Positions 45,479 to 48,971 of a DNA stretch of 59,100 nucleotides are shown here, one piece after another (position 1 is the stretch's first letter; each line of letters opens with the position of its first letter). The notes beneath the pieces were generated by a model. It did not search any database, was not told the origin of the DNA, and saw only the letters and a program-made list of their open reading frames with translations. Both the position numbers and the translations under genes were made by a program. Source of the DNA: Flavobacteriales bacterium (GTDB taxonomy: Bacteria; Bacteroidota; Bacteroidia; Flavobacteriales_F; PHOS-HE28); assembly GCA_041745875.1 (NCBI GenBank), contig JBGTIB010000234.1, positions 1-59,100 of the forward strand. The letters run 5' to 3'.

Positions 45479-45559
45479 TCACAACTTCCGCAACAACCCC
45501 CGCATATCCACCTTCTCCGCCACGATCCGCTCCACCTCGCCGATGGGCACCCGCTCCTG
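45479..45559 (-). pseudogene. Orphan copy 2 of the glyS 3' end (26 codons + stop)
   Basis: Translates QERVPIGEVERIVAEKVDMRGLLRKL*, versus Gly[28 protein letters not shown]. Confidence 0.93.
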
Positions 45560-45579
45560 GTTGGATCCGCCGCGACAGT

Positions 45580-45951
45580 TCACACTTGTCGCTGTCGCAC
45601 CTTGTGTTCATCCACAGTGGTGAAGCGCCCCGCAAACTGGTAAACCCCCGACCCGACGATACGGACAAGCCTCTTGGCCACCTCTTCAACGTCGAAAGAC
45701 TCATAGCGGAATAGTACCACGCCTTGCCCGACCTTCCTTTCGAGCGCGAAGACCAATGCTCCGAAGTCCTGGTCGTGGGTGACCATGATGCGTTCCTGTT
45801 CCACGGCGTAGGTGAGGATGTCCTCGTCGTCCGGTATTTTGATATCCGTCCCTATTCGGACGACATCGTGCCCATGCATGCGGAGCCGAACGGCAGCGGC
45901 CTTCGAAACATTCTCGTCCAATAGGAAGCGGAGCGCGACCTTACTTTCCAT
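45580..45951 (-). CDS. DUF5615 PIN-like toxin
   Basis: RFLLDENV, GHDV, DEDIL, VTHDQDFG. Confidence 0.88.
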   Translation of the reverse strand: MESKVALRFLLDENVSKAAAVRLRMHGHDVVRIGTDIKIPDDEDILTYAVEQERIMVTHDQDFGALVFALERKVGQGVVLFRYESFDVEEVAKRLVRIVGSGVYQFAGRFTTVDEHKVRQRQV

Positions 45952-45969
45952 CCGCTATTCAGCTTGCCT

Positions 45970-46206
45970 CTATGCGCCTTCCAGCGGCCTGGGATACATG
46001 CCCGAAGCGATGTTCTCGCTCATGAAGGCGTATATGGCTTTGATATGGTTCGGCTTCAGGCGCTCATAGTTCTCCATGAGCTGTGCTTCGGTCCATCCTT
46101 TGGCCATCAATGCGAGGATGAACTCCACGGAAAGCCGGGTGCCTTTGATCGCCGGTTTGCCGGCGAGAACCTTGGGGTTGCTGGTGATGTATCGGCGCCA
46201 GTCCAT
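45970..46206 (-). CDS. DUF433 antitoxin
   Basis: ITSNPKVLAGKPAIKGTRLSVEFIL; TATATTTG promoter at 46212-46219. Confidence 0.9.
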   Translation of the reverse strand: MDWRRYITSNPKVLAGKPAIKGTRLSVEFILALMAKGWTEAQLMENYERLKPNHIKAIYAFMSENIASGMYPRPLEGA

Positions 46207-46243
46207 GGCTTCAAATATAACGCAGCGCAATGCCCAATGCGCC

Positions 46244-46443
46244 CTACAACTTCCGCAACAGCCCTCGTATATCCACCTTCTCCCCCACGATCCGTTCCAC
46301 TTCGCTGATGGGCACACGCTCCTGCTTCATGCTGTCTCGCTCACGAATGGTGACGGCGTTGTCGACCAGCGTGTCGTGGTCCACGGTGATGCAGTAGGGC
46401 GTGCCGATGGCGTCCTGGCGGCGGTAGCGTTCGCCGATGCGTC
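46244..46443 (-). pseudogene. Orphan copy 1 of the glyS 3' end (64 codons + stop)
   Basis: [64 protein letters not shown], colinear with 47430-47624. Confidence 0.96.
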
Positions 46444-46445
46444 GG

Positions 46446-47363
46446 CTATTGCTTGATCCACTTGGCTGTCCCGTGGATCTGGCCGCTTTGGTCCACGATG
46501 GAACATTGGTAGACACCGGGTGGCAAGAGGGAAACATCCACGCCCCCATCCTCCTTTATCGCTTCTTCCATGACGATCCGGCCGGTGATGTCGTGCAGGC
46601 GTAGCGAGGTTTGCCCAAATTCTTCCAAGCTTCTGACCCAGAGTTGGTCGTGCCCAGGGTTGGGATATAGGACCGGCCCTGACGATCGCTGCGGACTTGT
46701 GTCCATCCCCAGGAACAGGTCGCAAGCCGATGGTCCACCTGTATCATAGATCGGAAATGTGTCGTCCTGGTAAGTGCGCAAAGTGGCGCCGAAATCTGAG
46801 ACGATGCATCCTCCTGGGGGGATGACCATCAATGGCGTCCCAATGCGTTCCACGACTGTCGTCATGCCCATCTCGGGATCACCGAACTGGTCGAGATGGA
46901 CCACGGAAACTGTACGCAGCATTACCCCGCTCAATGAAATATGGCCTGTATCGGTCACCTGGAGCATGCCCCATGTTCCTCCACACGTGCTCTCGTCAGC
47001 ACCGATCGGCCACCAACGGTCGCCAGGCACGGCGTTGAACCGGTAGAGGGTGTCCCATTCCCATTGGCCGCTAAATGAGGTCCAGGCGAATACGATGCTG
47101 TCCTCCACACTGGTGTGGAAGTAGGTATCCGTTTCCGTGATCGTGCCTGCAATGTGATCCAGCACATGTCCTGTAACATGGAACTGTTGTGCCGAACGGC
47201 CGTCAATGACCGTGTCTCCCACATAGACGTGGGTCTGGCAGCCATCCGTGAAGGCAGTTTGAATGTTGTAATTCCATACTGCGCCGGGCGGGGACCAAAG
47301 TTGTGCGGAAAGTCCAAGGCCCATGAAGCCTGTGGTCACAGCGAAGGTGATTTTCATGAACAT
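46446..47363 (-). CDS. T9SS type A sorting domain protein, function unknown
   Basis: Signal peptide [23 protein letters not shown]...[10 protein letters not shown]...KWIKQ. Confidence 0.88.
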
Positions 47364-47429
47364 GGGTTTGTCTGTTCTCCTAATGTGCAGGAAGAAGACA
47401 CCAGAAGGGACGCCTTCGCTGCTTAAGTC

Positions 47430-48971
47430 CTACAGCTTCCGCAACAACCCCCGCATATCCACCTTCTCCCCCACGATCCGCTCCACCTCACTGATGGGCA
47501 CACGATCCTGTTTCATACTGTCCCGTTCGCGGATGGTGACAGCGTTGTCTACCAGCGTCTCGTGGTCCACGGTGATGCAGTAGGGCGTGCCGATGGCGTC
47601 CTGGCGGCGGTAGCGCTTGCCGATGCTGTCCTTTTCGTCAAACTGGCAATTGTGGTCCAGCTTCAGGCGGTCCATGATCTCGCGGGCCTTCTCCGGCAGA
47701 CCATCCTTCTTGATCAACGGTAGCACAGCCACTTTCACTGGCGCCAGCGCGGCGGGGATGCGCAGCACCTCGCGTGTTTCACCGTTGGGAAGTTGCTCCA
47801 CATCATAGGCCGCGCTCAGGATGGCCAGGAACATGCGGTCCAAGCCGATCGAAGTCTCCACCACGTAAGGCACGTAACTCTCGTTGGCTTCCGGATCGAA
47901 GTACTGCAGCTTGCGACCGCTGTGTTTCTCGTGGCTGCTCAGGTCGAAGTCCGTGCGGCTGTGGATGCCTTCCAGCTCCTTGAAACCCATGGGGAATTGG
48001 AACTCGATGTCGCAGGCGGCGTTGGCGTAGTGGGCCAGCTTGATGTGGTCGTGGAAGCGGTAGTTCTCGGTGGGCAGGCCCAGGGCGCGGTGCCACTTCA
48101 TGCGGTACTCCTTCCAGTGGGCGTACCACTCCATCTCGGTGCCGGGCTTCACGAAGAACTGCATCTCCATCTGCTCGAACTCGCGCATGCGGAACACGAA
48201 CTGCCGCGCCACGATCTCGTTGCGGAAGGCCTTGCCGGTCTGCGCGATGCCGAAGGGGATCTTCATCCGTGCGCTCTTCTGCACGTTCAGGAAGTTCACG
48301 AAGATGCCCTGTGCCGTTTCGGGACGCAGGTAGATGGTGCTGCTCTCGCCGCTCACGCTGCCCAGCTCGGTGGCGAACATCAGGTTGAACTGCCGCACCT
48401 CGGTCCAGTTGGCCGTGCCGCTCACCGGGCACTTGATATCCTCGTCGATGATCAGCTGGCGCACGGCCTCCAGATCGTTCGCGTTGAGGGCCTCCTTCAT
48501 GCGTCCTTCCACCGCATCGATGCGGTCCTGGCTGCGCTTCACGTTGGGGTTGGTGGCGCGGAACTGCGCCTCGTCGAAAGCATCGCCGAACTTCTTCGAC
48601 GCCTTCTCGATCTCCTTGGCGATCTTCTGCTCGTACTTGCCGATGTGCTCTTCCAGCAGCACGTCCGCCCGATAGCGTTTCTTGCTATCCTTGTTGTCGA
48701 TCAGCGGATCGTTGAAGGCGTCCACGTGGCCGCTTGCCTTCCACACGGTGGGGTGCATGAAGATGGCTGCGTCGATGCCCACGATGTTCTCGTTGAGCTT
48801 CACCATGGCCTCCCACCAGTAACGGCGGATGTTGGCCTTCAGCTCGGAACCATATGGGCCGTAGTCGTACGTGGCGCTGAGGCCGTCGTAGATCTCGCTG
48901 CTGGGGAACACGAAGCCATACTCCTTGGCATGGCCGATCAGGGTCTTGAGGCGGTCTTCTTGATTGCTCAT
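47430..48971 (-). CDS. glyS: Glycine--tRNA ligase (alpha2 type)
   Basis: SEIYDGL..YDYGP, ASGHVDAF, LRPETAQGIF, FRNEI, REFEQME, anticodon-binding [14 protein letters not shown]. Confidence 0.98.
   Translation of the reverse strand: MSNQEDRLKTLIGHAKEYGFVFPSSEIYDGLSATYDYGPYGSELKANIRRYWWEAMVKLNENIVGIDAAIFMHPTVWKASGHVDAFNDPLIDNKDSKKRYRADVLLEEHIGKYEQKIAKEIEKASKKFGDAFDEAQFRATNPNVKRSQDRIDAVEGRMKEALNANDLEAVRQLIIDEDIKCPVSGTANWTEVRQFNLMFATELGSVSGESSTIYLRPETAQGIFVNFLNVQKSARMKIPFGIAQTGKAFRNEIVARQFVFRMREFEQMEMQFFVKPGTEMEWYAHWKEYRMKWHRALGLPTENYRFHDHIKLAHYANAACDIEFQFPMGFKELEGIHSRTDFDLSSHEKHSGRKLQYFDPEANESYVPYVVETSIGLDRMFLAILSAAYDVEQLPNGETREVLRIPAALAPVKVAVLPLIKKDGLPEKAREIMDRLKLDHNCQFDEKDSIGKRYRRQDAIGTPYCITVDHETLVDNAVTIRERDSMKQDRVPISEVERIVGEKVDMRGLLRKL

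Follow-up and report, generated by a model that had tools for sequence, protein, structure and literature searches.

The window analyzed here is a stretch of 59,100 nucleotides from a Flavobacteriales bacterium (Bacteroidota; GTDB lineage ending in PHOS-HE28), i.e., positions 1 to 59,100 of the forward strand of contig JBGTIB010000234.1 (C234) in GenBank assembly GCA_041745875.1 (G000), a metagenome-type assembly of 4.66 Mb in 316 contigs. On its minus strand it carries glyS, the gene for a class II glycyl-tRNA synthetase (GlyRS), followed by an array of accessory genes that are separated by displaced copies of the glyS 3′ end. Domains in 12 window proteins were assigned with Pfam, and tRNA genes with ARAGORN. 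The open reading frame (ORF) of glyS (47430-48971) encodes 513 aa with the domains HGTP_anticodon and tRNA-synt_2b, and the protein is 84-98% identical to those of the full-length genes of the genus. Its last 64 codons (47430-47626) constitute the current working end, referred to as tail 0. Downstream lies cassette A (about 46441-47429), the cargo of which is a 305-aa protein (46446-47363) with a C-terminal sorting domain of the type IX secretion system (T9SS; Pfam Por_Secre_tail). It is followed by tail 1 (46244-46440), a displaced glyS 3′ end of 64 codons plus stop, with 90% identity over 198 nt. Cassette B contains two small, co-directional genes with 18 nt between them, namely one for a DUF433 protein (45970-46206; Pfam DUF433, E 1.9e-17), a putative antitoxin, and one for a PIN-like DUF5615/Mut7-C protein (45580-45951; DUF5615, E 4.5e-17, and Mut7-C), a putative toxin. 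Both family domains and the adjacent, co-directional arrangement of the genes are those of type II systems, and we regard the pair as a putative toxin-antitoxin module. Tail 2 (45479-45562) comprises about 26 codons plus stop, with 91% identity over 82 nt, and beyond it stands a gene for a second T9SS-sorted protein of 597-622 aa, designated T9SS622 (43566-45434; Por_Secre_tail). All of these features are on the minus strand, and the order given in the initial annotation (glyS, T9SS gene, tail, toxin-antitoxin pair, tail, T9SS gene) agrees with the ORF and Pfam calls. Tail 1 begins 2-5 nt past the stop codon of the 305-aa gene and tail 2 begins 17-20 nt past that of the toxin gene, in line with the earlier estimates of about 2 and 20 nt.

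The entire assembly contains just three copies of the glyS end; the remaining 32 of the 35 matches obtained at E values up to 10 are at most 36 nt long. Both displaced copies are still in frame and end with a stop codon where glyS does, as had been stated. Between tail 1 and the working end, 19 of 192 nt are different, 15 of these changes being synonymous and 4 non-synonymous; the earlier count of 4 non-synonymous codons was reproduced and that of 14 synonymous codons was revised. The corresponding ratio of non-synonymous to synonymous substitution rates (dN/dS) is 0.064, with a dS of 0.43. That is, the ratio is not near 1, and the two ends accumulated a large synonymous divergence with little amino-acid change, from which it follows that they diverged while both were in use, and hence that they stem from different lineages. 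To judge from this substitution pattern, tail 1 is an end that diverged as part of a functioning glyS allele. Among the 27 distinct alleles available, the nearest to tail 1 is that of the G134 locus (93%), and the working end is at least as close to its own nearest allele, so that this comparison is of no help in tracing the tail. Tail 2 shows 3 synonymous and 3 non-synonymous changes relative to the working end, but with 26 codons it is too short for a firm ratio.

The differences in tail 1 are unevenly distributed, with 2 changes in the first 9 nt, then 56 identical nt, and then 17 changes in 126 nt. The identical block, noticed previously near the 5′ edge of the tail, thus occupies positions 10-65 of 192. 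The same block is identical in just 3 of the 340 pairs of genus alleles with a difference of at least 10% in the last 126 nt, the median being 6 differences. This stretch looks like a crossover or conversion tract. No identical block is found at the 5′ edge of tail 2.

The loci of relatives were examined in a search of 131 genomes of the genus, of which 114 contain the glyS end. The closest relative, G129, whose GlyRS is 98% identical, carries an intact glyS followed by homologues of the DUF433 (90%) and DUF5615 (70%) proteins, a glyS tail of 23-26 codons and a T9SS622 homologue (69%); i.e., its locus is the array of the window minus the newest cassette. The order in G115 is identical, and across these two genomes the DUF433 homologues that directly follow the intact glyS are 90-95% identical to that of the window, and the DUF5615 homologues 70%. 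In G129, G115 and G030, a tail homologous to tail 2 is located ahead of the T9SS622 homologue. In eight fetched genomes (G018, G006, G022, G027, G014, G026, G025 and G084) glyS is directly followed by a T9SS622 homologue, and in eight others (G009, G032, G015, G008, G024, G092, G134 and G036) by the tRNA-Leu and deaminase genes, with a GIY-YIG gene in between in G036. These latter genes belong to the conserved backbone. In the window, it consists of an intact tRNA-Leu(CAA) gene (43076-43158, minus strand; identified with ARAGORN and found in relatives too), which is conserved and delimits the variable region on the right, and of the Pfam-assigned genes for a dCMP deaminase (42501-42944) and an S41 peptidase (40873-42495), both on the minus strand and both kept after glyS and tRNA-Leu in relatives. 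Contigs from an independent lake-water run also run from the glyS stop codon to tRNA-Leu with 32 nt between them, which is the minimal state in a relative. Other neighbors of glyS in some relatives are AbiEi/AbiEii or DUF4160/DUF2442 pairs.

Every predicted earlier state of the locus was thus found in relatives. T9SS622 is a former direct neighbor of glyS, tail 2 is the oldest glyS tail of the array, and cassette A is the newest insertion; the G129 and G115 loci, in which only this cassette is lacking, support the proposal that an incoming tail with its cargo pushed the previous tail and cargo downstream. The nested arrangements accordingly suggest that T9SS622 arrived first, the toxin-antitoxin pair second and the 305-aa gene last. 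In addition, the tails keep their old downstream context, as seen from retained spacers and neighbors. The spacer between tail 1 and the DUF433 gene of the window is similar to that between the working end and the DUF433 gene in G115; a motif in the spacer past the displaced tails of G030 and G115 is the motif past the working ends of G084 and G018; and in G012, G099 and G119 tRNA-Leu is still located 3′ of the displaced tail, just as it follows glyS in the minimal state. The tail of G115 differs from the working end at 3 sites over about 96 nt, with no differences in the 12 nt that begin with the stop codon. Together with the dN/dS of 0.06 at a dS of 0.43, the stages in relatives bear out the view that the tails are former working ends rather than decaying duplicates.

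Extra glyS tails occur in 12 of the 114 genus genomes that hold the glyS end. A protein search detected them adjoining glyS in 11 (G000, G010, G012, G030, G099, G107, G108, G113, G115, G119 and G129), and a DNA search added G029; further matches in G087, G127 and G128, which contain stop codons or are located on other contigs, are outside this count. The tails range from about 12 to 281 codons (36-843 nt), and G012 and G113 have two each. No extra tail was found at 80 glyS loci of other Bacteroidota, searched within 4-kb flanks (70 of these loci have at least 1.5 kb downstream). In G010 and G012, the displaced tail of 281 codons starts at codon 233 and is preceded by the same familyless gene of 208-210 aa; in G012 this tail is frameshifted. 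Tail and gene together are a shared older unit.

Displacement of gene ends is not confined to glyS. The whole G000 genome was compared with itself and filtered for repeats that end a long ORF and have an orphan copy nearby, with a mirror filter for 5′ ends, referred to as heads. Six further loci with displaced 3′ tails were obtained. In an array on contig C31 (436-4178), a carboxyltransferase gene is followed by three tails, one decayed with stop codons (2090-2191), one of 57-60 codons (793-975) and one of 22 codons (436-504). An aminopeptidase P gene has a tail of 80 codons, an aldehyde-dehydrogenase-like gene has a tail with a DUF4160 gene and a partner gene as cargo, similar to the DUF4160/DUF2442 pairs of G016 and G113, and the genes for a PhyH, a MORN and an HD protein represent one locus each. 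Two displaced heads are located side by side on contig C7 (12300-18871), namely a head of 24 codons (15891-16001) separated from the aspartyl-tRNA synthetase (AspRS) gene by a Schlafen/AlbA_2 gene, and a head of about 85 codons (18542-18871) separated from the PPK2 gene by a familyless gene of 286 aa. A gene resembling those of nonribosomal peptide synthetases also has a displaced head, and a partial tRNA-Leu copy in the window, described below, is the fourth such case in this genome. Of the 29 same-genus relatives in which the carboxyltransferase was matched, 12 have orphan tails of it close to the gene, including an array of four tails in G025; the 22 matched genomes of other genera have none, and their second matches are full-length paralogues of 35-41% identity. 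The aminopeptidase P tail, by contrast, is found in G000 alone among 57 genomes with a match, so that not every such scar marks a genus-wide hotspot. End displacement is, therefore, a genome-wide phenomenon that affects both ends of genes and extends across the genus. The earlier proposal of an array anchored on an essential gene holds for glyS, but this anchoring is not a special feature, as the carboxyltransferase, aminopeptidase P, PPK2 and 5′-end cases demonstrate. Similarly, the proposed time order fits the stages in relatives, but a strict order is not guaranteed: in the C31 carboxyltransferase array the most decayed tail is closest to the gene, and an incoming piece can bring its own older tails.

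The boundaries of the cassettes are formed by glyS coding sequence, and their positions vary. The glyS tails start at about codons 233, 449, 459, 463-465, 480, 483-484, 488-491 and 502, and those of the carboxyltransferase at more than 12 different positions. There is thus no fixed crossover core common to all junctions; at least 8 glyS starts are seen, with a partial cluster at codons 483-484. At the opposite side, homology between copies ends at most about 12 nt past the stop codon, and in the case of heads within about 4 nt of the start codon. Such confinement to the gene is expected if diverged donor and recipient lineages share only the coding sequence. G119 and G012 have no cargo at this point: just 40-75 nt separate a divergent working end from the genus-typical tail downstream of it. 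As to enzymes, no tyrosine recombinase is encoded on C234; the genome has three Phage_integrase matches (on C248, C247 and C52, the last being a tyrosine recombinase of 412 aa without an assigned role) and no match to serine recombinases of the resolvase type. No recombinase or transposase family was detected in the 12 window proteins or in 21 proteins at the other scar loci, nor in the 33 scanned of 46 ORFs of at least 90 aa downstream of glyS in ten other genomes, a set that extends past the cargo into backbone genes. The initial annotation had described the array as lacking an integrase, and had named a shared attachment core with a cognate integrase as the finding that would speak against its reading; with varied tail starts, no cognate integrase recognized, no tyrosine recombinase on the contig and no recombinase domain in the cargo examined, its description stands. 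Taken together, recombinase-free cargo, varied breakpoints, heads as well as tails, and cases without cargo point to docking by homology rather than at a fixed attachment site.

We consider it probable that the array was produced by successive insertion-duplications at the 3′ end of glyS that depended on homology. The anatomy is that of insertion-duplication, in that a homologous segment of variable length is directly duplicated and brackets the insert, and the target gene remains intact. In the original locus, the genes for tRNA-Leu, the deaminase and the peptidase of family S41 would have come after glyS, and T9SS622 would then have become its neighbor. A foreign glyS 3′ end together with the DUF433/DUF5615 pair would have recombined into glyS, keeping the gene intact and leaving the previous end silent beyond the cargo as tail 2. 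A second piece, consisting of another glyS end and the 305-aa T9SS gene, would have repeated the process and displaced tail 1. Joining would depend on homology to the conserved gene and would require no dedicated site-specific recombinase. The displaced tails would have no function of their own and would decay over time; as direct repeats they could also allow cassettes to be looped out, as had been suggested, though no deletion or swapping of cassettes through the tails was observed.

Two routes for such events can be envisaged. In route (a), a circularized molecule carrying a gene end and its cargo would integrate through one Campbell-type crossover, duplicating the homologous segment. In route (b), a linear fragment would undergo homologous recombination within glyS and an illegitimate joining at its other end. 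The 56-nt identical block and the fact that duplication is the natural output of a single crossover with a circle favor route (a). Other observations favor the linear route. For the cases without cargo, the circles would have to be just about 220-300 bp in size. The working gene of G119 has a divergent segment that starts at about codon 340, upstream of the start of the duplication (codon 465), which is not predicted by a simple crossover within the duplicated segment. Both routes fit the data, and the evidence is split between them.

These two features of the cargo-less cases and of G119 are among several points that weigh against the proposed history. According to a study in E. coli, recombination with one homologous and one illegitimate joint usually yields an insertion with a deletion, rather than a duplication (PMC3240628). 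About six genomes have tails that start at codons 483-484, and at least three distinct junction sequences are seen among them; a breakpoint may be preferred at this position, for which neither route accounts. The enrichment of displaced ends in the genus is not tracked by Ku, and mismatch repair is present. No donor of cassette A was found among the 131 genus genomes: the 305-aa protein is one of a large family of paralogues, its top match in the genus is 42% identical, and the only homologue that adjoins glyS in the genus is a relative of 35% identity in G010. No circle, excision product or empty-site junction of the array was detected in the contigs of four public runs, which drop rare variants. 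Lastly, all Logan contigs end inside the repeats, and the order of the units thus rests on the original assembly and on one contig per junction.

This last point raises the question of whether strains with different genes after glyS were stitched together through a shared glyS end. The assembly is of metagenome type and in 316 contigs, contigs of the runs break in the repeated tails, and further glyS alleles are present in the same runs. However, in a public run that may be the source sample, contigs covering 45489-46331, 46402-46975 and 47023-47463 span each cargo-tail junction with 0 differences at an even depth of 6-9. Moreover, the junctions fuse unrelated sequence to the middle of glyS, which a mis-join through shared words cannot generate, and the same anatomy is seen in 11 other genomes, including far less fragmented ones such as G012 (about 4 contigs) and G010 (about 20 contigs). 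An artefact of this kind is, thus, highly improbable. We attach equally little credence to the idea that the glyS end was duplicated locally and then decayed, and that the cargo arrived independently. The tails are indeed direct repeats near their parent gene, and the G115 tail is nearly identical to its working end; nevertheless, the synonymous divergence of tail 1 at so low a dN/dS cannot accrue in a silent copy, and both the downstream context that the tails share with working ends of other genomes and the stepwise states in relatives contradict this explanation.

Site-specific accretion would account for more of the anatomy. According to this explanation, elements attaching at the glyS 3′ end brought replacement ends with them, and their integrases have been lost or act in trans; e14 in icd and cis-mobilizable streptococcal elements are reportedly examples. 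Direct repeats with a replacement gene end are the expected remnants of such events, the 56-nt block is located at the 5′ edge of tail 1, where a crossover core would be expected, starts at codons 483-484 recur, and the tyrosine recombinase encoded on C52 could act in trans. Yet the cargo examined contains no recombinase, serine recombinases are absent from the genome and tyrosine recombinases number three, the tail starts are as diverse in glyS and the carboxyltransferase as described above, and tail 2 lacks an identical block at its 5′ edge; inserts as small as 40-75 nt, displaced heads besides tails, and the many unrelated targets in a single genome also argue against it. We therefore judge this explanation to be quite unlikely. 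A further one, unlikely in our assessment, is that general recombination is insufficient on its own and that an enzyme or element specific to the lineage drives end-duplicating insertion. It would explain why glyS and carboxyltransferase tails are found in the genus and not at the loci of other Bacteroidota or in the genomes of other genera, and also the favored breakpoint in glyS. On the other hand, genomes of relatives do not count as independent samples, a large number of co-occurring, recombining species could produce the skew, the aminopeptidase P scar is restricted to G000, and no candidate gene was found. A Ku gene beside that for a 922-aa ATP-dependent ligase, i.e., a bacterial end-joining pair, is present in G000 (contig C36, 26513-28592). 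Ku/LigD end joining was rejected as the lineage-specific cause: Ku is patchily distributed, in 6 of 36 same-genus relatives and 5 of 24 genomes of other genera, and most genomes with arrays are without it. Loss of mismatch repair was discarded as well, the MutS_I and MutL domains being present; MutS, MutL and ComEC are all ordinary, and competence genes do not explain the skew toward the genus. GIY-YIG nucleases, of which the genome has just 3 copies, were dismissed as a general driver, with the tRNA-Leu head as a possible exception.

Several observations concern the surroundings of the array and the public data. On the minus strand between T9SS622 and the intact tRNA-Leu gene, the window contains a partial copy of the 5′ half of tRNA-Leu (43418-43494; repeats of 28 identical nt and of 36 nt at 81%) and a gene for an 84-aa protein with a GIY-YIG nuclease domain (43165-43419; Pfam). 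The GIY-YIG gene lies exactly between the partial copy and the intact gene (43076-43494 in all), and a doubled tRNA-Leu motif with a spacing of 332-333 nt brackets a GIY-YIG gene in G030 and G036 too; in G024 the motif is present twice, 81 nt apart. This arrangement looks like the displacement of a tRNA-gene head with the nuclease gene as cargo. Upstream of glyS, the window contains a DUF6922/AbiEii pair (51191-52074). Such a pair is located directly downstream of glyS in G029, G021 and G004, and after two glyS tails in G113; that is, this toxin-antitoxin-like module is found on either side of the glyS hotspot. Contigs end inside glyS in many fragmented assemblies of the genus (e.g., G107, G002, G112, G007, G131, G139, G022 and G035), and repeated or strain-variable glyS ends may be what breaks them. 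A run from a lake-water study provides hints of other arrangements in relatives, in junctions that are each represented by a single contig and measure 36-55 nt on their shorter side: one joins a tail end to the interior of a homologue of the 305-aa T9SS gene, and another is a tail-tail joint. In a search of the assembly for small circular contigs, C221 was the only one with identical ends (97 nt); it proved to be a strain-variant bridge between two other contigs and was rejected as a circle.

Insertions that leave the target gene intact and shift its original end to the far side of the insert are known from e14 in icd and from tRNA-targeting islands. Those elements rely on an integrase of their own and on a core site that is fixed; neither was found here. 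In integrons, compact cassettes are added at one end of the array, and their position reflects the order of arrival. The glyS array resembles integrons in that compact cassettes are added at one end; unlike integrons, it has no IntI-type integrase on the contig, its cassettes are bounded by gene ends where those of an integron would have attC sites, and its breakpoints vary.

Closer parallels are found in orphan-tip arrays. In Rhs arrays, as in the array of the window, a new end arrives with a fragment of the conserved part and the old end is shunted downstream and silenced, and tips accumulate with core fragments of varied length; a circular intermediate and a single homologous crossover were proposed (Jackson et al. 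2009, PMC2935791). In Rhs, however, non-homologous toxin domains accompanied by immunity genes are displaced, and diversification of these tips is the point, whereas here the ends are conserved, interchangeable parts of housekeeping genes, the cargo consists of unrelated accessory genes, and 5′ ends are displaced too. Variable toxin tips with cognate immunity genes, which define the orphan tips of Rhs, contact-dependent inhibition (CDI) and type VI secretion system (T6SS) loci, are not present. The likeness to Rhs/CDI orphan displacement drawn in the initial annotation thus applies to the homology of the tails to the main gene (90-91%), but not to their content. T6SS arrays, like the present one, grow by serial insertion, in which older modules are moved downstream together with leftover 3′ gene ends and no integrase is known to take part, and ready-made arrays can move later by ordinary recombination; an upstream homologous anchor and an illegitimate joint were proposed, and the authors liken the arrays to integrons (2017, PMC5361080). 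Those arrays consist of effector-immunity modules only, and retained immunity genes are advantageous; here the anchors are core genes and the tails have no evident benefit. An experimental precedent comes from E. coli, in which 56 of 60 recombinants had gene-end duplications of 109-950 bp, which arose from a single crossover of a trimmed, re-circularized molecule (Amarir-Bouhram et al. 2011, PMC3240628). The duplications vary in length as do the tails of 36-843 nt, although the former came from a laboratory construct delivered by conjugation, with no serial events, whereas the glyS array is natural. The logic is that of known orphan-tip arrays, here acting on housekeeping genes. A search of the open-access literature, which was not exhaustive and covered sources in part, yielded no report of displaced housekeeping-gene ends flanking accessory cassettes.

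The movement of small accessory genes, such as toxin-antitoxin pairs, without a transposase or integrase is poorly understood, and the scars described here name a route: the incoming DNA used the end of a conserved gene as its address. A practical consequence is that, because of repeats such as those of the glyS end, assemblies may be broken within essential genes. The displaced ends, which are dated by their divergence and retain their former neighbors, provide a stepwise history of gene gain at one locus that can be checked in relatives. A broader idea, which we put forward tentatively and with some doubt, is that the ends of conserved genes are docking sites for a recombinase-free traffic of cassettes in this uncultured genus; small units of a gene end and its cargo would loop out by way of the direct repeats, pass between species and re-insert by homology at the same gene, and, given the strong restriction to the genus, a lineage-specific factor would promote or preserve the insertions. 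If so, restriction-modification genes, toxin-antitoxin pairs and proteins secreted by the T9SS would be among the cargo of this traffic, arrays in a roughly chronological order could be read at many core genes, and toxin-antitoxin cassettes may guard the arrays against collapse. If the process is general in the genus, the scars could serve to trace gene flux driven by recombination in metagenome-assembled genomes, to reveal donors, and to address why one lineage accumulates them.

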